Part shown: positions 1,646-64,000 of the stretch, piece after piece
Layout: each line of letters opens with the position of its first letter
Numbering within the stretch: the stretch's first letter is position 1
Source of the DNA: Octopus vulgaris
Lineage: Eukaryota
Assembly: GCA_951406725.2 (NCBI GenBank)
Contig: OX597818.1
Coordinates: 80,104,001-80,168,000 of the forward strand
Reading direction: 5' to 3'
DNA: 64,000 nt
Notes under the pieces: model-generated
What the model saw: only the letters and a program-made list of their open reading frames with translations
Told to the model about the DNA's origin: nothing
Database searches by the model: none
Position numbers and translations under genes: made by a program

Positions 1646-1763
1646 CTCTTATTGTAAAGGCATTCATAAACAAGGGAGTGCATTGAGAAATCTTCAACTT
1701 TTTGGGAGGTGGCGGCTCCTCAGTTATCTCCCCATCAATATTCACAATAAACAGATCTTCAGA
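1646..1763 (-). CDS. APIP: APIP exon 4: [39 protein letters not shown](G); gene continues left of the window
   Basis: 118-nt exon, ttttgtag|TCT...AGA G|gtaag; [10 protein letters not shown] motif of APIP; phase consistent with exon 3. Confidence 0.97.
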
Positions 1764-8336: not shown

Positions 8337-9180
8337 CTAGCAGAATTGCCCGGCGTTGCTCGGGGCTGAATTGCTTGAAAGTACTGTTAATGATTGCACT
8401 GAATTATGATGATTATTCAGGCAAATATTGATATAAGCTTACGGTGGGAGATAAGGACTTAACGATCAAACGTGTGCCATTGCATTGTTTTGGGGGAACC
8501 AAATTTCTGATGAGCATTATAGGGGCACCAACTTTAAGTTTGAGAAAGTGTGGTGGTAGTCCGGGGTGCTCAAAGGAATTGAGTACCTCTATTGGATAGT
8601 TGATGACGTCCTCTGGGTCAAGAGTTGTATCGATAGACTGATATACATAGACTTCCCCAGGAATGAGTTTTAGCATTTCATCATTAATATGGTGAACAGT
8701 TTTATTCCTCGGGGCCAGTATAGCCTTTTTGCCAATCCAATCCATATTCTGATAATTAGCTTGTAGATCTGGGAACACTGCATCTCTGAGATCAGAAGGC
8801 GTCTTAACAATGGTACAAATGGAATCGATGGCAATATTACCATTTTCATCCCCTGGTATTTTGCCTTCGCCAAGTGCAAGGAGGGTGTGAGGAAATGCTG
8901 CTGATGTGATATTACGTCGCATATGAGCATGCATATTGGTGTGAAGTTTGAGAGTTACTTCCGTTTATTTTTAAAAATATGCATTAAAATGGAAAAAAAT
9001 GATGGTAAATTATTTGTAAAATCATAGACTCATCGTAGACGCGCGCTAATACCCAGAAGGGCTCGATATGAATCACGACTATAAGATACCCGGTTTTGGT
9101 TAAACTGCATCGCAAAATGTGGGAGTAGTTAGGAATCTAAATCGGAGTAGACAGACACACAACCTTTCTTTTATATATAA
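8337..9180 (-). mobile_element. Non-autonomous Helitron carrying a PIF1-like helicase fragment (8413-8934)
   Basis: ORF has AILAPRN..INDEML..YQSID..YPIEVLNS..PGLPPHFLKLKVGAPIMLIRNL..CNGTRLIV. 3' hairpin cccgagcaacgccggg followed by CTAG (8337-8340); TATATATAAAA-type 5' end near 9180. Confidence 0.9.
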
Positions 9181-11597: not shown

Positions 11598-11646
11598 CTT
11601 GATTCTTTCTTTCTGAACACCTGATGGAGCAATATATATTTCATCC
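11598..11646 (-). CDS. APIP: APIP exon 3: (K)DEIYIAPSGVQKERIK
   Basis: 49-nt exon, tttttttcag|G GAT...AAG|gttggt. Phase 2 in matches exon 2; motif IYIAPSGVQKERI is diagnostic. Confidence 0.97.
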
Positions 11647-12046: not shown

Positions 12047-12141
12047 TTGTGTTTTATGCTGATTCCTCCACCAGTTCCTGTGCACCAACCCAAATGATAG
12101 AATTGGCGGCACAATTCTGGAATCAAGGTGCGTGGGTGTTC
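12047..12141 (-). CDS. APIP: APIP exon 2: [31 protein letters not shown](K)
   Basis: 95-nt exon bounded by T-tract+gtgaag and GTAAGT. Peptide matches the APIP N-terminus (human [31 protein letters not shown]). Confidence 0.97.
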
Positions 12142-27310: not shown

Positions 27311-30220
27311 CAATGAAAAAAAGTCTCAGTGGCTATGGGGATTCATCCATATGCCAGTGAGACAGCGAAAACACAGCTGGACTATATGTTGTACTACATA
27401 TTCAGAATTTCACAATGTCTGAACAGGTCGTTATTGAGAGAACCATCTCTGTTAAGGGCTGGATGTACTTTACGCAGAAGTGACAAGACCTATTTTGCAC
27501 TGAGTTAACATTACATATTGATTTTAAAAAATTGGGATTTACCTTCAAGTTTCCAACATCCATGATTGCTGTCAATATTCTTTCTTCTTAGTGAAAGTAT
27601 TTTAGTTTGGTTTCAATTCCTTGACTCAAAGTTTGAGGCTGGAATGATGAAGTTCTTCTTTGTCTATTGGTCACGATTCTTCATTCTTTTGAAGAGTTTA
27701 TTTCTTTTCTACAAATACTGGATTATCATCATCATCGTTTGATGTCTGTTTTTCAATACTGACATGAGTTGGACGGTTTGACAAGCTGCATGGCTGTGTT
27801 GAGCTCCAATGTCAGCTTTGGCATGGATTCTACAGATGGATGCCCTCCTTAATGCCAACCACTTTACAGCATGTGCTGCATGATTTTATTTCCATGCCAC
27901 TGGTACTAGTGAGTTTACCAAGTAGCTTGCAAGACAAGAAAGGACATGAAAAAGGGAAAAGTCCCTTCAACTAAGAAGGGATGGGGTAGATATTGAAAGG
28001 TGGGAGGTGGTTGTATGCCAGGTGTTGAGAGGCTGAGGTATGACAGAGTGTTATGGTTAAGGTAATGATTATGATGTATAATGCTACTGTCTAATGAGAC
28101 TGAGGAGTTTAACTAATCATCATATCTATGGAACAAAATATATGAGAATCGCCAAAAGTTCTAACATCCTGTATATTCCAGTGAAACACCAATAGTTCTA
28201 AAACTCCATATCTTTCCTGGAATAACAATTTTTAAATGGACCTTCTTTTCTTGTATTCTTTACTTACCAATGAATCACAGTGAGTTCTGATACTGGTTAC
28301 AAATTTTGACACAAGGCCTGACATTTCAGGAGAGAGGGCAAGCTGATTACATTGACCCCAGTGTTCAACTGGTACTTATTTTATTGACCCCAAAAGTTTG
28401 AAAGGCCAAAGTCAACCATAATGAAATTCGAACATCAGAACATAAAGACAGATGAAATCCCACTAAACATTTTGCCTAGCATGCTAATGATTCTGCCAGC
28501 ATATTGCTTTAATGCTATTTAAATAGTGCATTCCAACATTAAACCTTTTTCAATGATTTAACTTTTCTAGAATTCTATATTATTTAACGGTCATCAGAAT
28601 CATTAGAGCATCAGAACAAATTTGTTCTCTCCATCTCAGTTCTGAATTAAAATCCTGTTGAAGTCAACTTGGTTGAACAAGTCTTTTACTTGAACCAATA
28701 AACATCTCCCATAACAGTTGCTTTGTTTAAACAACTAAATTGAGGGATGCACAAGGTTGATACAATAAATGCAATTTATTATGAAATTCTTTTTCTTCTT
28801 AGAAAAATTTTTTTTTCACTACTCATTTAACCAGCAGAAATACATGATTTCATACATTTACAACAAAACCAAATTTCCCTTCATACAGTAGGTTATCCAT
28901 TTTTTCTCATATATTTATTTTCTCCACTAAACTGCTTGCAACAGATTGTTCCTCACAAAAGCACCAACATACCAAAAGGTGATTATATGAGTGATGCATT
29001 AAATTTACTACCCATGAACAGTAATCCCCCTAACAGGCTCCCACAGTTTTCATTCATCAAATTTGATCAAACTGGGGCTGTGGTAGAAAGCAGTTGCCCT
29101 TAGTACTGGATGCAGCTAAAAAAAGTTACATCCTAGGACCATATACTACAGAAGTTTCACAAACCACAATGGCCTCATGATAAATAACCTTTTTATAGGA
29201 ACCCATCTCAGATAAGCCCTGGTTTTATAATGTACTCTTACTCTTCACTCTTTTACTTGTTTCAGTCATTTGACTGTGGCCATGCTGGAGCACCACCTTT
29301 TAGTCGAGCAAATCAACCCCAGGACTTATTCTTTGTAAGCCTAGTACTTATTTTATCAGTCTTTTATGCCAAATCACTAAGTTACTAGGACATAAACACA
29401 CCAGCATCAGTTGTCAAGTGATGTTGGCGGAGACAAACACAGGCACACAAACATATACACACACACATATATATATATACATATATACGACAGGCTTCTT
29501 TCAGTTTCCGTCTACCAAATCCACTCACAAGGCTTTGGTCAGCCCAAGGCTATAGTAGGAGACAATTGCCCAAGGTGCCACGCAGTGGGACTGAACCCGG
29601 AACCATGTGGTTTGTAAGCAAGCTACTTACTACACAGCCACTTCTACAGTGATCCAAGTCAAAACTTTCCTTCAAAATTTCATGTTAATTTATGTTCCAT
29701 ACCACTGGAAATATCAGCTTCACAATGACGAAGTTATTTCACTAAATCCTTCAATAATTTCAAAATTAATTGAAACAAAGTCAGAGTAATTCAACAGAAA
29801 TACAGTAAAAAAGGAGCGAGGTAAAATCCTTGAAGCTACAAGATAATGCATGATTAATTGCAAAACAATTTGAATAAATAAACATTACACTTGACAGAGT
29901 AATCTAAATGCTAAAGGGTTAATAATGATATATTTTACTAAATAATGATATATATATATATATAAAAATAAATGCGCCCTTTTAAAGCCTAACCAGGCTC
30001 ATGGGCCTGGTTTCCCGGTTTCTATGGCGTATGTGTTCCCCAGCTGGGTGGGGTGCCAGTCCATCGCAGCATTACTCATTTTTTGCCAGCTGAGTGGACT
30101 GAAGCAACATGAAATGAAGCGTTTTACTCAAGAACACAACACGTCGCCCAGTCCAGGAATCGAAACCACAATCTTACGATCATGGTGCTGACAACCTAAC
30201 TCCTAAGCCACGCGCCTCCA

Positions 30221-31782: not shown

Positions 31783-32295
31783 ATTATGGCTGCCCCCTCG
31801 TTATCGAGTATGGCCATTGCACGAAGCTTAACTGTTACTGGTGCTGTGATCGAATGTGACTTTTTAGCCCAGCCAAAGATCTACAATGCCTTGTACAGAA
31901 TTGACAACTAAAACCTTTACCAGTAATAGCTGGCTGTAGTTGTAACTGGGCTTCATGTACCTTTGCATGTTGTTTAAGTCCTCCTGCTGAATTACACTCT
32001 CTTCCACATGCCTGACAGATATGATTAGTATGGTGTGTAACACCACCACCAGTGGCCAAGTTGTCACTCATCTGTCTCAGTTTATGACTATGAAGATGAC
32101 TCTTGAGTCCAGCTTTACTGAGGCAGGGTCTTGCACAGACACAGCATGTCAGCATCATAGGAAGACCCTTCACATCTGGAAGTGTAACAGCGATGCCCTT
32201 CCTGACATCCCTCCTTACTTTCTCATGTGCAACTCGAGATTTCTCAAAAGTGGCTGTCCCCTCGTGCACAATCCTTCTCCACCTGCTACGATCAT
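31783..32295 (-). mobile_element. RTE-clade LINE 3' end with three C2H2 zinc fingers
   Basis: DRSRWRRIVHEGTATFEKSR followed by CCVCARPCLSKAGLKSHLHSH, CQACGRECNSAGGLKQHAKVH, CQFCTRHCRSLAGLKSHIRSQH; short 3' UTR ending ggcagccataataat. Confidence 0.8.
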
Positions 32296-39106: not shown

Positions 39107-39700
39107 TTAATTGCATGTCATTCTTGAGATTATGTCACCTTCTGCCCAGCAGATGTTGGGGAAGTTGAAGTCACCAATGCATTGATCTAGTTTCGTTAGG
39201 ACTTCTTTCATCAATGTTAGTCTTTCCTGAAATATACCGTCTTGATTTGTGACGACAGGTGGGTGAAATAATGTGCATATTACCACATCAAGTTGCTTTA
39301 AATGCACTATGATTGTATCACAGATTGAGTTTGAATAAGGCAACAGGGTTAGCGGTGTGATATCTTCACAGATGTACAGAAAAACTCCACCGTAACTTCT
39401 TTCTCTTCTGCCTGTATAAAACACAGCGGACATTGGTATGTGTATCTCCGCATCATTTATATCTGCAGACAGATGTGTCTCCATAAGTGCAATGCATGTT
39501 GCTTGACTGTAGGCAGAAAGATCACTCAGGTTCATAAGTTTGCATCTACTGTTATTTAATAGGAGACCACTGATATTTATCAAAAGAATTGGTGTCATAG
39601 TCAGCTTGGTGGCAAAGGTGCTCACACTAAGTCTATTATTCAAGGTGGTCTTGCGTTGCAACCATCCCAGCTGCTGCATTATATTTTTGTGCCAAACTTC
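39107..39700 (-). mobile_element. LINE apurinic-like endonuclease (APE) fragment
   Basis: LINISGL..IALMETHL..GGVFLYI..ICTLFHPP..GDFNFPNICW. Confidence 0.85.
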
Positions 39701-39717
39701 AAAAATTCTGCCGCATT

Positions 39718-39782
<65 letters not shown>

Positions 39783-39784
39783 TA

Positions 39785-40415
39785 TATTTGGTATAAAATA
39801 ATAATAATGAAATTATTGTATACAGTGCTCAGGTGCACCACAACTTGTCAGAAAGTGCATATAAAGTACATGCAGTAATGTAGAAATGTCTGGAAAGCGA
39901 ACAATGTATTAGTCAGATACATGCTTGTGTGTGTATGGAGGGGAGAAAATCAAGTGTAGTGTTGGCGAATCTCAGGAAGCATGGAAGTTTTGAAGGATGC
40001 AGTGCTCCGACAACTAACAACCGATGCCGGCAGTTTGTTCCAGGCTTCAGCAACTCTTAGCGTGAAAAAATGTTTCCTGAAGTCATGGGAGCTGTGCTGT
40101 TTTCTTACTTTGTAAATATGTCCATGGGTGTTAGATGGGTGGAGTTTGAAGAGGTGCTCAGAGTTATTGTTTGTGCGATGGTTGATAATTTTATGGGTGT
40201 CTGCCAAGTCAGCTGCCAGACGTCGGAGTTTCAATGTGTCCATGCCCAGGGAAGTAAGGCATTCAGGATATGGTAAATGCCTGATGGAGGGTATTCTTTT
40301 GGTTGCACGTCGCTGAACAGCTTCCAGACGATTGATGTCCTGGGCAAGATAGGGGTTCCAGACCGGTGATGCAAATTCCAGGTGAGGTCTTACCATAGCT
40401 ATATAAAGGCTAGCA
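39785..40415 (-). mobile_element. CR1/L2-group LINE RT C-terminus and 3' UTR
   Basis: LYIAMVRPHLEFASPVWNPYLAQDINRLEAVQRRATKRIP..LRRLAADL..HFFTLRVAEAWNKLP; tail (AAT)n before (TA)n. Confidence 0.9.
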
Positions 40416-40444
40416 CAGAAGGTGGACGTTAAACAATTATGATG

Positions 40445-40475
<31 letters not shown>

Positions 40476-40503
40476 TTATACATATATATATACATATATA
40501 TAT

Positions 40504-40536
<33 letters not shown>

Positions 40537-56426: not shown

Positions 56427-58007
56427 TATTTCACCATTTAAACCAGCCATATCAAGCCCAAATATTCAACCTACTTTATGTTCAAACTGGCCAGATCCAG
56501 CCTCACACACCTATCCAACAGCATTATTCCAAAAATAAACAATCACATCATCAAAATCTTGAAGCTACAATACAACGCATGAGCAATTCAAGAGGGTGAA
56601 TAAATAAGCATTAAATTTTATAAAATAACCTGAATGCTTAAAGATTAAGGTACAAAAAGGTGGATAGGGAGAGAAGAGTGTGTGGTTGGTGGGATGGGTA
56701 GGTTCACAAGAGTATGAAAGGAGACTGACAGTTGTAGAGATGAGAATAGAAATGAATTATATATATCAACATCAAAATAAATATCAAATGGAAATTGTAG
56801 TTGTGATACCTGTGCCGGTGGCACGTAAAAAGCACCATTCGAACGTGGCCAATGCCAGCGCCGCTTTGACTGGCTTCTGTGCTGGTGGCACATAAAAAGC
56901 ACCAACTGATCATGGCCGTTGCCAGCCTCCCCTGGCACCTCTGCCAGTTGCATGTATAAAGCACCCACTACACTCATGGAGTGGTTGGCATTAGGAAGGG
57001 CATCCAGCTGTAGAAACACTGCCAGATCAGACTGGAGCCTGGTGCAGCCCCCTGGCTTCCCAAACAGGAAACGGACGTATGGTGATATTCTTTTTTCTGA
57101 AACTGGATACTGAAGCACATATCACATATAAAGCTATAAATGTGTAAATATTGGGTTGAAAAACCCTTTTGAGCCGAAAAAGTTGACAGCTGTCCATGGT
57201 ACTCGAAACCACTTATACTACAAACATGACAGGCATTCAACTTAATATTTACATATTATTTATAGCTTTATATGTGCTTTGAGATGCACCATTCCAAAAA
57301 GGAAGAATTAATTCACGTTCTCTTGAAAGTTCATAAAATTCTTGATATCAATAATACATGTATATGTGTGCACAGAATGCAATACAAGCACGGCACATCA
57401 CTAGCAGTTATGGAACAAACACAATACCTATAATTACAGTCAGTAACAAATATATGGCAACATATTCAAATATCATCAACAAACACTTAGCAAAATATCG
57501 TCTTTTTTTTTTATATATTTCACATTTCTTTTTTTCCTATCAAATCCACTCCCACAGAAATTGTTATGGCAACACTTCCTGCTTCATTCCTCTTATTGCT
57601 ACTCCTAATGGCAACACTTCCTGTCCCGTTCCTCCTATCGCTTCTCCTACATAGCAATAAAGACTGCTGAATCCTAAAATAATATCAAATATACTAATGC
57701 AAGAAGGCATGCAACCTAGTAGTTAAGGTGTTGCATTCATGATCATAAGATCATAGTTTCAATTCCTAGATTGGGTAGTGTTGTATTCTTGAGCAAAACA
57801 CTTGCTGTAAATGAATTCAGCAATAGCTAAGAAGTTAACTCTGTAACATACAAGCTTTTATTCAAGGAGAAAGTTTTGTAATCTCAGTCACATCATATAC
57901 GTCAAGGGAATCCCATTAAGCTCCAGACTTGCGTGGCTCATGACAGACCTCAAGTAGACTAATCATTGGGGGAGAGGTCACTCAGCATGTTTATTGTCTT
58001 TTTTTAA

Positions 58008-58229
58008 CCCTTTAGCATTCAGATTATTCTATTAAATGTAACAATAATTTATTCACATTGTTGTGAATTTATCCAGTATTATCTTGTAGTCTTGAGATTT
58101 CAATTATGTGACTGTAAATTTTTTTAGACTAACATTGTAAGGTAGGTGTCAGAGGCAGGATCTGGCTAATCTGAACTTTAAACAGGAAGAATACTTTGAC
58201 CAGGTATAGCCGCTTTAAAAGCTAAAGGG
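58008..58229. mobile_element. piggyBac-like TTAA MITE (related copies ~10950-11173, 23457-23635, 24660-25068, 36925-37150, 49613-50410, 56436-56648)
   Basis: TTAA-CCCTTTAGC ... GCTAAAGGG-TTAA. Confidence 0.75.
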
Positions 58230-60534
58230 TTAAATAGCTGAGTCAGAGGTGGTAGGGGAGGGAGAGAACCCCAACACACATTACCTCTTTCCAAAATCTT
58301 CAAGATTGGTGAGAATAAAGGAGGAAGCTATCGGCAGACCAAAAACCAGGACGAAATTCTTACAAAGAGTAGATTATGCAAAAGGCACTAGTGGGGCCAG
58401 GTGGTGGTTAACCTCAGAGTAATGGTTCTCAACTAGGGTCCATATAAGATTCTGTTGTTAAAATTTATCTGCAATAAATTGCTTATACTTTTACAATACA
58501 CAAAATGTTTTAACAATTTTTAATAATATTTAATTATAAAAATACAATAGGATTTTTAAAACACGAGAGTCCATTCGAGTAAGATAGGAATTAAAGGGAT
58601 CCATAAACAAAAAAATCGTTGAGAACCACCAGTCTAGATCAAACAAATTTATGATAAAAAGTATTCTAACACTAACTTGTCATCTTTCAAACACTCCATG
58701 TACAACTACTTATCTTAATATGTCCTACTTTTTTTTAACAAAGTAGGGCATGATGAAGGAGATTTAGCTACTATTTCAGCAACCAAATAGAAGTTGGTTC
58801 ATATTCTTTTGTGATTAAGCAGACCTATGATCACAGATAATCCCATGAGACACATTATCCAAATCATCCTTCTTTTTAAGGGAGATTTAGCTCTTCTCAC
58901 AGACCAAGTGACCATGTCAAGGCACCCTCGTTGATTCATGCAACAAACATTTTGTTGTTAAACCCAAGGTCAGCCCTAACAAACAGAAATTCAATGAAAA
59001 AGAATTCCAGGTGCAAGTCATGTTTCTTAAGCAGTGCACATTTAGGACTACATTATCAAATATGTCCCTAATTTTTTTTTAAACAATAGGAATATAGGAA
59101 CATTATATATATATATATAAATATATATATGGGAGATTTAACTGCTACTTCTAGCATGTAAAGTGATTCTGTAGGGACTCCTTTGGTGGTTCAAAATGCT
59201 TTGAGTATATGTATATTAATGTCTTCTTCTAACATGTCAAGTAATCCTGTAGAGGCACCTTCAGTTGTTCAAAATGCTTCATGTATATAAGGCTCTTTCT
59301 CAATACTTTCAACTGTTGAAAGCAAGACCTTCCTTCATCAACTGATACAGATTATAAAGGAAAGACTATTTGTCAGTTGTAGCAAAAAGTTTCCATAATT
59401 TGGCAGCAGATATATGAAAGGTCAGTCTAATGAGGATGCCCATATTACATATCAACTTCATCTTCAACCTTGTCATACTCATTATCATCAATTATCATAA
59501 TACTTTATATAATACACCATTAATATCATCACATTATCCAGAAACTGTGAACTATATTAGGTGAATTTGACAACTGTTTTATTGATTTTTTTTCGTTCTT
59601 TCTTTCTTATTGGAGCAATTAAAACAGTCCAGTGGCAGTAGAAATATCAAACCCTGAGTGAAACAGTGTTATGACTACCTGGTGGTAATCAGAAACACAC
59701 CTAAGTAACCAACCATCAAGTGTAAAACATCTAGCTGGAGGGAAGAAGTTTTAATGGGCCTAACAATACCGTAACACAGACAACAGCTAGATTACTCAAC
59801 ATATTCAAAGAACAGGATGTTCAAATACAGTAACATTTCCTTTGTAAAATACATTTCAGAAATTCAATAAGTAATAATTAAAAAAATAACAATACAAATA
59901 ATAACAACCAGAAGTAATAATAATAATAATAATAAAAATGATGATGATGATTATTTTGAATTTTGGTACAATGTCAGCAATTTTGGGGGAGAGGGTAAGA
60001 CGATTACATCAACCCCAGTGCTCAATCTGTACTTATTATATCAACCCTGAAAGGACGAAAGGCAAACTCAACCACAGCAGAAGTTGAACTCAGAATGCAA
60101 AGATGGACAAAATGCCGCTAAGCATTCTACCCAGCATGCTAACAATTCTGCCAACTCACTGCCATAATAATATTAAAACTTATAATAATGGTTTCAAAAT
60201 TTCGGTACAAGGCCAGTAATTTTTCAGGCAGCAACAGGATCAATCGATTAATTTTCGACCCCGGTATTCAACCAGTACTTTATTTTATCAACCCTGGAAA
60301 GGATGAAAGGCAAAGTTGACCTCAAAGGAACTTAAACATTAATAAAAATAATAAGTTGTCATAATCAAAATAGAATCAGCAGCAATAATAATAATAATAA
60401 TAATTACAAATAGATGTTTCCTTTTATTCTTCATATATTTGTTCGATTTTTTTTTCTTAATCCAGAGAGGAGTGAGGTTCAAAAAAGAGGATATGTATGC
60501 AATTATGTATGTTTGTATATATAAAGATACACAC

Positions 60535-60580
<46 letters not shown>

Positions 60581-60769
60581 TGTGTGTGTGTATGTATATA
60601 TTCATTCATATATATGTGTACATATATATATATATATACATGCATATATAGATATATACGTATTCATATACATATATATGTACACATATACATACATAGA
60701 TACAGATACACACACATGTATATATACCCATACAATCTTGTATACACCAACAGAGAACAAGAGGTTGAG

Positions 60770-60820
<51 letters not shown>

Positions 60821-61080
60821 TATATAAAATGAAAGAGAGAGTACGGTTTGGAGTGGAACAGAAGTCAGACACACACACACATAAATTAAAGTCAGAGATT
60901 TTCAAAAAAATATACATGCACACACAGACACACACATACATACACAATTCACATTATCAATTGTGAAATTATACATCTGTAAACAAAAGTAGGAAAATAT
61001 CTGGCAGTAGAGCAAAGTGGATATTTTTTTTTTTTGAACAAGTCAACATTTTTTGATTTCAGTTTTACACGTGGGAAGTT

Positions 61081-62802
61081 TCAGGAACAAAGTTTGCAGG
61101 GGTTGTCACTGCCATCCACACAAGACACGTGGAACCATCTGGGGCAATTGTCACAACCAACCCAATTGATATCTTCCTGGTCAGTTTCAGGGTCTTCTTC
61201 CAGGCAGATATAACAAATACTATCATCAATTTTTTCTTCTTCCTTGTTGTTATTATTAGTTTTATTTGCTGGTGACTTCTTTTTAGATTTATTTTTATTC
61301 TTCCGCTTCATTTTAGGCTGTAATTTGAGAATTGCTTCTTTAATTAGTGTAGATTCATTATTTTCTTGTACATTTTTCTTTTGTTCTTTGTTTGGTGGTG
61401 GCTTGTCATCACTTTGTAAGCTTCTTTTCTGACGTTTTGAAGGTTTCTTCACAGTCTTTGCTTTCTCTTCCGAGGAAACAGAAGACCGAGAAGACTTTTT
61501 GGCTTTTGTTTTAGAATTTGATGCAGCCCCTGTTACTGCTTCAGTATCTTCTTTTGATTGGAGACCAGACGGACCAGCATCTCTCTCCGATCTATCTAAG
61601 TTTTTAGAAGAAAGTAGCTTACCCTTATGTGCATCCAAAGGACAAAAACCAGACTTACGAAATCCATGGATGAGATTATCTTTACGAGCGAGGAATGCTT
61701 CGTCAAAGAAGCGTTTCAAAAGAGAAGGAAAAACAAGCTTTTGGACCGATTTCAGACTAGACTCCTTATAGTATGTCTGCAGAATCCTATGCCACACTTT
61801 TTTGGCAGGTCCATACACAGAAATCTCAAGAGGTTGCAGAGCACCTGAGGAATGTGGAGGTAAGCAAACAAGATGTACCCCAGCATTCCTGGCTTTTGAA
61901 GCTGTTTGATAGGTAATATGTGAGCCATTGCCATCAAAGAACACAATTATTGGTTTCTCCCTATTTTTTACAAAAGGCAAAAATGTCTGTGTCACCCAGT
62001 TTTCAAAAACATAATCATCCATCCAACCAGTTTCTGTAATGTTGTATGTTGTCCCAGCAGGGCCACCCATCATCCACGTATCGTACAGGTATTTACCTTT
62101 GTAAATAACGTAGGGAGGCAGATACTCTCCCTCAGCATTGCCACAAAATAAAACTGTGTAAAGTGTCTTACCCACCGATGGCATCACATACTGACCGTTC
62201 TTAATGCCACGGTGATGAAAAGCTTTTTTCTTTTTGGGGTCGAGATTAAGTCCCGTTTCATTTAAATTGTAAAATCGTTCTGGTAAATCTGTTATTCCCA
62301 GTTGATTAACCAACTGAGTCAACATTTGAAAAAAGCCATCGATAACTGCATCGGTGAGTTCTCTAACTTTTGCATTATTTACATAATCTGGATTCCTCAA
62401 AGTTAATCTGTCTTTCCAGCGATTCATGAAATGGTGAAGCCAGTCGTCTCCAGGTATATTATTTTTGAAAACCGTTTGCAGATCCATGGAATCGAGATAA
62501 CTTTTCACGATAAGTTTCAGTTGTTCATTATCCAACGTCCAGCCGAGGTCACTCAGATATAAGAGTGCCTCTATTAAATATTCTTCGATTTCCGTTGACA
62601 GGACTGTATCACGGCCCGATCGAAAATGAGCACTTTCGCGTTTGTTAACCCATCTTTCTAACGTGGATCTTGGTACACCAAACTTCCGAGCAACTGATCG
62701 AAAAGTCACACCTTTACCTCCGTTTTTATAACAATTTATAGCATCCCTCAGATCATCTTCAGAAAAAGTTTTCAAAGTTTTTCTTTTGTATAACCGGGGC
62801 AT
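61081..62802 (-). CDS. Intact pogo/Fot1-like (Tigger/CENP-B/jerky family) transposase-derived protein: psq-HTH + CENP-B HTH + DDE_1 + Lys-rich linker + PHD finger, 573 aa
   Basis: First ATG at 62802 (gtcATG; the track start at 62826 is TTG). Motifs: RSVARKFGVPRSTL (psq HTH), PGDDWLHHFMNRW (CENP-B HTH), YNLNETG / FFDGNGSH / LPPHSSGALQPLE (DDE_1), CYIC..CDNC..HVSC..CKLC (C4HC3 PHD). No stops or frameshifts. Confidence 0.93.
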   Translation of the reverse strand: MPRLYKRKTLKTFSEDDLRDAINCYKNGGKGVTFRSVARKFGVPRSTLERWVNKRESAHFRSGRDTVLSTEIEEYLIEALLYLSDLGWTLDNEQLKLIVKSYLDSMDLQTVFKNNIPGDDWLHHFMNRWKDRLTLRNPDYVNNAKVRELTDAVIDGFFQMLTQLVNQLGITDLPERFYNLNETGLNLDPKKKKAFHHRGIKNGQYVMPSVGKTLYTVLFCGNAEGEYLPPYVIYKGKYLYDTWMMGGPAGTTYNITETGWMDDYVFENWVTQTFLPFVKNREKPIIVFFDGNGSHITYQTASKARNAGVHLVCLPPHSSGALQPLEISVYGPAKKVWHRILQTYYKESSLKSVQKLVFPSLLKRFFDEAFLARKDNLIHGFRKSGFCPLDAHKGKLLSSKNLDRSERDAGPSGLQSKEDTEAVTGAASNSKTKAKKSSRSSVSSEEKAKTVKKPSKRQKRSLQSDDKPPPNKEQKKNVQENNESTLIKEAILKLQPKMKRKNKNKSKKKSPANKTNNNNKEEEKIDDSICYICLEEDPETDQEDINWVGCDNCPRWFHVSCVDGSDNPCKLCS

Positions 62803-63975
62803 GACGATGCGTTTCACTTCCCACAAGTTTGCTTTGTCTGTTTGTTATTCTTAAATAGTATCTACACTTCTCCCTCTATTTCTCTTTCTGGTTTATCTTA
62901 ATTGTGTCGTCTTATAAAAGAAAATATCACAAAATATCAACTAAAAAGTGGCCCCACCCATAACACAGCTTGTTCTTGAAACACAAACATAGTAGAGCCC
63001 TCCCGCATCTCATGCAAGACAACGTTCCTTAGCTAGTTTTATATATATTCAGCTAACATTTAGGCACATTGTTTTAGTTTCGTTACAATATTCTACTTTA
63101 GAAACACACGATGGTTCTTAATATTTCCGCCTTCTTTTCTTTTTTTATCAGTCTTTCTTTCCAACACGTTAGTGGATCCTGGATTTCAACGATTTCAGCG
63201 GATATTAAGTCCTTTCACAACAATACTCTTGATCAAACAAGGCAAAACTGGCAGAATTTCACAGAGAAAATGTTAACAGTTTATTATATTTATATAAAAA
63301 GCTTTGGGGAAAGAGCAAAAAGGAATTCAACACGATTTCGCTTTAAAACTTCCAAGACATTTAAAGTAAAAAGCTTGAAGTCATTATTGCTGGTGTAAAG
63401 CTAAGGTCAAACGACCTAAAATGATATTCCACACAGTATTACATTGTAGGAAGGATTTTCACAACCTTCAATACGGGAGGAGCCTTACTACTTTCATTTG
63501 ATCTGACTGATCGCGTTATTGCTTTTCAACAATGTTTTATATATCTCCCCCATCATTTCCCTAGATGCATTTTCCCCTTATTTCGTCGTTAGCACCAACT
63601 AAAACTTTCTCTTCCCCGTCTATCAACACTAAAAAGGAATACGATTTAATTAGCACGGAAATACTGCTAAAGAACGTCATTGGTTGCAGAGAGAGAGAGG
63701 GATAGCGAGACAAGATTTAAGTTTTTCTTCTTATATTTAAAAGTGGAAAGAATGCAACATTGCATGACAAGGATCTAGTTATGGAACTGTGATTAATATT
63801 ATTATTACACATGGATCTGAGATAATTGATAAAATGCGTGCGTATGTGTCTCTTTACAATGATGAGTGTGCGCGTGTCATTTGTTATTCTGTTGGTAATT
63901 CTCGCCGGGAAATCAGCACGATTGCCAGCGGAAAGAGAGGAGAAATAAGATCATAGGCATGAAAAGCAATCTTAC

Positions 63976-63984
63976 TTCGTCCAT
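63976..63984 (-). CDS. APIP: Probable first coding exon of APIP (ATG GAC GAA = M-D-E; frame is also open upstream to the window edge, ...QTFSP-MDE)
   Basis: Minus strand reads ccaATGGACGAA|GTAAGA. This phase-0 donor matches the phase-0 acceptor of the [11 protein letters not shown] exon, giving [14 protein letters not shown], like the acidic residues preceding EHP in animal APIP. Only 9 nt, so the join is inferred. Confidence 0.6.
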
Positions 63985-64000
63985 TGGTGAGAAGGTTTGC

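Follow-up and report, generated by a model that had tools for sequence, protein, structure and literature searches.

A pogo-type transposase-derived gene in the first intron of octopus APIP shares its first exon with APIP and is likely expressed by read-through

How does a transposase-derived gene that lies inside the intron of a housekeeping gene obtain its RNA? This question is raised by a stretch of 64,000 nucleotides of Octopus vulgaris DNA (hereafter the window) whose minus strand carries APIP, the gene for methylthioribulose-1-phosphate dehydratase. The original prediction placed APIP exon 1 at the end of the window, spliced across 52 kb, and a transposase-derived open reading frame (ORF) about 1.17 kb past the donor at 63975. 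It proposed that one exon feeds either APIP or a transposase RNA, the latter through a proximal acceptor at 62910, in the manner of the CSB-PGBD3 exon trap. Four RNA runs of four studies (X1, X3, X9 and X11) were compared as assembled contigs. No run is on record as RNA, and the evidence that they are RNA comes from the spliced junctions seen in X1 and X3. The contigs give no start, end, strand or level; a path through contigs does not represent one molecule, and rare forms are lost.

The placement of APIP exon 1 and the splice across 52 kb were borne out. In X1 and X3, which come from two studies, the exon 2 contig carries an upstream loose end of 29 nt whose 25 in-window letters equal 64000-63976, and intron 1 is therefore bounded as in Table 1. 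The downstream loose end of the same contig maps to exon 3. Because these contigs carry the spliced 63976 to 12141 and exon 2 to exon 3 joints, X1 and X3 contain RNA. The annotated APIP proteins of O. vulgaris, O. sinensis and O. bimaculoides (RefSeq/GenBank) begin with MDEEHPR (isoform X2), in agreement with this first exon. At least 114-199 nt of the exon lie outside the window, as the X11 and X9 contigs reach 114 and 199 nt beyond 64000, respectively. X9 and X11 have no contig on exon 2; this absence is possibly false and was not used as a tissue-ratio signal. At exon 4, all 39 residues are identical with the O. vulgaris protein and 38 with the O. sinensis protein. The alternative start exon listed in Table 1 represents a third product of the locus, made either from its own promoter or as a cassette that follows exon 1, and does not displace exon 1.

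Table 1. Features of the APIP locus in the window and of the transposase-derived ORF within its first intron.
Feature	Position	Strand	Remarks
APIP exon 1, 3' end	63976..64000	-	ATG 63984, codons M-D-E; junction contigs X1, X3
APIP intron 1 donor GTAAGA	63970..63975	-	context GAA/GTAAGA, G at 63975; fork between spliced APIP RNA and read-through RNA
APIP intron 1	63975-12142	-	51,834 nt
Retained 5' part of intron 1 (leader of read-through RNA)	62803..63975	-	1173 nt
Candidate proximal acceptors	62910..62942	-	AG 62942-62941, AG 62912-62911; present, use not observed
Pogo-type transposase-derived ORF, intronless, 573 aa	61081..62802	-	HTH_psq (14-57), second helical domain, DDE_1, low-complexity basic linker, PHD-like finger
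PHD-like C4HC3 finger	61087..61215	-	C530, C533, C550, C553, H558, C561, C569, C572
3' UTR as far as contigs go	60840..61080	-	contigs end in a (TA)n array at about 60830
Alternative APIP start exon, coding part MDVGNLK	27543..27563	-	isoform X1 in two RefSeq annotations (O. sinensis, O. bimaculoides); donor GT at 27542
APIP exon 2	12047..12141	-	
APIP exon 3	11598..11646	-	
APIP exon 4	1647..1763	-	approximate bounds, tblastn

The ORF is the only long non-repetitive one in the window and is the orthologue of LOC106877420 / LOC115211605. Its ATG lies inside APIP intron 1 on the same strand as APIP, and the distance counted from the donor, 1173 nt, is the one predicted. Other minus-strand ORFs of the window look like repeat remnants: a 173-aa ORF at 8413-8934 resembles a Helitron/PIF1 helicase fragment, and pieces at 39107-40513 and 31835-32158 resemble remnants of LINE endonuclease/reverse-transcriptase and C-terminal zinc-finger parts. 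In the transposase-derived protein, both DDE_1 (79.9 bits) and HTH_psq (25.7 bits) score above the Pfam cut-off. The catalytic triad reads N181, D290 and E326 with a D-to-E spacing of 35 (N,D35E). The predicted model has a mean pLDDT of 73, with a linker (398-522) that shows no resolved fold, and its predicted fold is Tc1/mariner-like, closest to the Mos1 and SETMAR transposases (E 7e-9). The combination of an HTH_psq domain and a spacing of 35 residues agrees with the Fot/Fot-like pogo families (HTH_psq, DD35D) as described in the available text of PMC7386202. We consider the protein a domesticated pogo-type transposase that is predicted to be catalytically dead; the altered triad points to the loss of transposase activity.

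At the C terminus, the PHD-like finger holds all eight zinc ligands, and W547 and W556 occupy both cage positions of a KDM5-type PHD3, as the cage is defined in the accessible part of PMC9814790. In alignments, the two residues fall on the tryptophan pair of KDM5B PHD3 (E 0.011) and on that of the top match, 3n9l (E 6.8e-5). The Pfam PHD score is 19.8 bits, below the cut-off of 24, and just 7 residues precede the last Cys pair. The finger pattern was matched by 11 other relatives out of 192, including a near relative with an intact triad (P0004). Because these 11 carry a similar C-terminal finger, it came with the transposase and did not arise as a host adaptation. As judged from sequence, the finger of the octopod protein may read methylated H3K4 via its two tryptophans.

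The N-D-E triad was found in 7 of the 192 relatives, all of the octopod group (Argonauta hians, O. bimaculoides, O. sinensis and four other proteins of their clusters), and 164 of the 192 have D-D-D. Compared to Argonauta, 247 of 255 residues are kept in the DDE region, 44 of 48 in the finger, 127 of 140 in the N-terminal 140 residues and 89 of 130 in the linker. The O. bimaculoides protein XP_014781803 differs by 9 substitutions and one extra residue. In a FastTree analysis of 58 of 59 rows (one short row was dropped), the six rows of the octopod group fall on a single branch (SH 100, stem 0.53, tips <0.05). The orthologue and APIP have consecutive RefSeq accessions in O. sinensis (XP_029636049/50/51) and in O. 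bimaculoides (XP_014781803/04/05) and in each lie on contigs of equal length, which is indirect evidence for the same APIP neighbourhood in two other Octopus species. No orthologue from squid or cuttlefish and no other close one was found among full-length proteins (7998 candidates scored), shorter proteins or 50%-cluster proteins (next match 41%), in searches that covered proteins of up to 1003 aa, and a metagenome scan returned distant elements only, at 36% or less. As far as these searches reach, the domestication is independent and octopod-restricted.

A terminal inverted repeat around the ORF was not recognisable, in a test that is not clean; the window holds 1198 nt upstream, and the inverted-repeat listing is dominated by microsatellites. 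The best inverted-repeat pair in the window is a 19-nt (TAA)n simple repeat, which passes the 18-nt threshold; 18 of 24 relative loci pass it too, mostly with complex arms. In 17 of these 18 loci with a hit of at least 18 nt, the inverted repeat lies about 0.1-0.7 kb above the ORF match of an intact relative. A similar inverted repeat occurs some 0.4-0.5 kb above the ORF in five intact-looking pogo relatives of one public assembly (L010, L011, L013, L016 and L049).

Is the ORF represented in RNA, and does that RNA begin in APIP exon 1? An unspliced contig path runs from exon 1 over 62910 and the entire ORF in all four runs. In X1 and X3 one contig covers 60950-64000, in X11 one covers 61036-64000, and in X9 two contigs abut at a length polymorphism near 61270. 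At 61269, X11 has a 3-letter insertion that corresponds to the additional Thr bringing the O. sinensis and O. bimaculoides proteins to 574 aa, and the X9 contig breaks there. The contigs of the four runs show no base differences from the window, and a single contig path crosses the ORF, with no competing copies. Furthermore, 14 runs guessed to be RNA, from 4 studies, contain 94-100% of 306 sampled words of 61000-64000, a stretch of which two fifths is leader. The bins 58603-59607 have almost no cover in any of the four runs. This gap fits an RNA that ends above it and argues against DNA carry-over, although the gap alone proves nothing. Thus, at the level of contigs, APIP RNA and transposase RNA share their first exon. 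This part of the original idea of one exon serving both RNAs stands; the proximal-acceptor route to the second RNA finds no support.

The evidence on that acceptor comes from the joints and from the fork at the donor. Both AG dinucleotides named in the original prediction are in the sequence, the one at 62912-62911 lying 108 nt above the ATG. Among the 15 joints listed for the four runs in 58000-64000 (17 in total), none falls in 61000-64000 and none connects 63976 to 62910 or 62940. The contigs of all four runs cross 62910-63975 without a break. Of the two junctions suggested for comparison, the one from 63976 to 12141 was thus found in two of the four runs and the one from 63976 to 62910 was not among the joints listed. 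In X1 and X3, the read-through contig and the APIP contig both begin at 64004, 4 letters past the window. In a graph of 31-letter words, paths that diverge into the intron (GT...) and into exon 2 (GA...) should fork at 64004, whereas the acceptors at 62910 and 62940 would place the fork at 64005. The fork at 64004 agrees with a partner exon that begins with G, as APIP exon 2 does, and not with one that begins with A or T, as the exons from 62910 and 62940 would. The X9 and X11 contigs cross the donor unbroken, to 64199 and 64114, respectively; because they do so with no visible branch, a minor 62910 splice could stay hidden. The depth of the contigs (read-through 59.9 and 60.2, APIP 12.7 and 26.1 in X1 and X3, respectively) is not usable as an expression ratio, since it cannot rank genes. 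Both RNAs thus leave one exon, the transposase RNA with its leader unspliced. We conclude that it likely arises by read-through of the APIP first donor, with an end inside the intron.

The leader of such an RNA is long and rich in upstream ATGs. It contains 20 intronic ATGs, 21 with that of APIP itself, which opens a 23-codon upstream ORF (uORF) in the read-through RNA. The 20 observed compare with 23.2 +/- 4.6 in shuffled sequences, so the ATGs are not depleted, unlike those of an efficiently translated 5' UTR, and another, shorter mRNA could be the one that is translated. Of all the results, this one weighs most against our preferred explanation. The last upstream ATG is at 62961, with none between 62960 and the ORF start. 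Rfam gave no match in the leader; its only matches were microsatellite-driven miRNA matches below the gathering score at 60.5-60.8 kb. A METTL16 target motif was not found in the leader either. On the 3' side, the nearest AATAAA downstream lies at 60428, with none within 650 nt of the stop. The contigs end at the (TA)n array, and intronic polyadenylation is likely. Just below this AATAAA, a high-copy SINE-like repeat (60000-60330) draws very many RNA contigs.

The undepleted ATGs keep two other candidates for the translated form in play: an RNA that starts inside the intron and a rare splice to 62910. The former would have its own start site in the first 1.2 kb of the intron (e.g. below 62961), and the contig link to exon 1 would come from overlapping read-through or nascent APIP RNA. 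The lack of ATGs between 62960 and the ORF would suit such a start; a single depth figure per contig could mask a step there, and since intact relatives keep an inverted repeat shortly above the ORF, an element-borne promoter is possible. We consider this start unlikely, because the leader is continuous in all four runs, including the smallest, nearly all leader words occur in the 14 runs guessed to be RNA, and the fork at 64004 shows reads spanning the boundary between exon 1 and the intron. For the splice, the translated mRNA would join exon 1 to 62910 or 62940, carry an 8- or 18-codon uORF and depend on re-initiation, with the unspliced form as a detained precursor. Translation of exon 1 joined to 62910 gives MDETTQLR and a stop, in frame with the ORF and ended before it, as originally stated; splicing to 62940 instead yields a uORF of 18 aa that ends at this stop too. 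The site at 62912-62911 comes with a pyrimidine tract, its use would drop 20 of the 21 upstream ATGs, and contig sets drop minor branches. Set against this are the missing joint, the unbroken contigs at 62910 and a fork base that fits exon 2 only, and we regard a spliced leader as quite unlikely. An exon trap of the CSB-PGBD3 kind finds no support here, as use of an acceptor was not seen in these contigs and the in-frame stop precludes a fusion.

Two further readings concern the 3' end and the nature of the element. As in ZBED6, which is made in this way according to the available text of PMC2780926, the read-through RNA could use a later donor to join APIP exon 2 and form a long composite without intronic polyadenylation, for which contigs that end at the (TA)n array leave room. 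The APIP contig, however, is unbroken from exon 1 to exon 2 in X1 and X3, with a single loose end at 12141, which leaves no abundant second path, and such a composite appears highly improbable. The intact single ORF and its Tc1/mariner-like predicted fold might also suggest a recent selfish copy that has no host function and is carried along by read-through. Against it, N,D35E is fixed across Octopus and Argonauta, conservation follows a domain-wise gradient, the neighbour is the same in two other species, inverted repeats were not recognised and there is one contig path; we hold this reading to be extremely improbable.

With moderate confidence, we therefore favor the explanation that read-through at the first donor gives the transposase RNA and splicing gives APIP. 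A single promoter upstream of the window would drive both RNAs. Splicing of the first donor would yield APIP mRNA, and unspliced read-through would yield RNA with the transposase ORF, cleaved about 3-3.6 kb into the intron at an intronic polyadenylation site. This cleavage would compete with the splice to the acceptor 52 kb away; because it would precede transcription of that acceptor, the two products should be mutually exclusive for each transcript. One promoter thus likely makes either protein, depending on intron 1 splicing. Translation of the ORF would be inefficient and would rely on leaky scanning or re-initiation to get past the 21 upstream ATGs, and the APIP start would serve as the first uORF of the read-through RNA. 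The protein would bind DNA with its helix-turn-helix domains, and its two-tryptophan finger may recognize methylated H3K4. Borrowing a housekeeping promoter is likely what let the element survive, and no functional tie to methionine salvage is needed. It is very unlikely that the choice between splicing and read-through is a regulated switch between a methionine-salvage enzyme and an H3K4-methyl-reading DNA-binding protein that couples methyl-donor metabolism to chromatin in octopods.

The closest known arrangement is that of ZBED6 in placental mammals, a transposon-derived gene without introns that lies within intron 1 of ZC3H11A and relies on the promoter of its host and on intron retention for expression (PMC2780926 and PMC5910864, in their available text). 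According to the same sources, ZBED6 is hAT-derived, its RNA of about 13 kb retains introns 1-3 and continues into host exons 5-18, and the shared promoter is supported by CAGE and Pol II data. Similar to ZBED6, the octopus ORF is intronless and lies in intron 1 on the host strand, its RNA is continuous from host exon 1 at contig level, no fusion protein is formed, and the locus is kept across a clade (indirectly, from Octopus accession neighbours). Unlike ZBED6, the octopus element is of the pogo type, its intron is 52 kb long and its RNA likely ends inside the intron. APIP exon 1 is coding, hence the host ATG becomes a uORF, and the shared promoter, backed by CAGE and Pol II for ZBED6, is one that we infer here. 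Nothing on ZBED6 translation was found in the literature searched.

In CSB-PGBD3 of primates, as the available text of PMC2268245 describes it, an acceptor 7 nt above the PGBD3 ATG is in frame with the host exons and gives a fusion protein. The octopus locus resembles it in having a transposase gene within a host intron, on the same strand, as an alternative outcome of the primary transcript. It differs in that no acceptor use was seen in the contigs of the four runs and that both candidate splices stop before the ATG. The first AATAAA is 650 nt below the stop. Domesticated pogo genes listed in the accessible part of PMC7386202 include TIGD2-7, JRK, JRKL, CENPB, POGK and POGZ. Like them, the octopus protein keeps a whole transposase (DNA-binding domains and DDE_1), has partly lost the triad and is strongly conserved; unlike them, it has a C-terminal PHD-like finger that was inherited from the element and not gained by fusion.

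The O. bimaculoides protein (LOC106877420 / XP_014781803) is listed as 'HTH-PSQ PHD' in the portion of the PMC10027918 supplement available, as a transposon-derived transcription factor candidate, in a row that gives no triad, gene context or APIP link. A link between an octopus transposase gene and APIP was not found in the literature searched, which covers few subscription journals or preprint supplements. The shared-exon arrangement is real and conserved, and the protein itself is already catalogued. The arrangement shows the source of expression for an octopod-restricted candidate regulator, and it predicts a trade-off with APIP output. If our explanation is true, the locus repeats, independently and in an invertebrate, the ZBED6 way of making a new gene, in which a DNA transposon survives just behind a housekeeping first exon and is expressed when the donor is unused.
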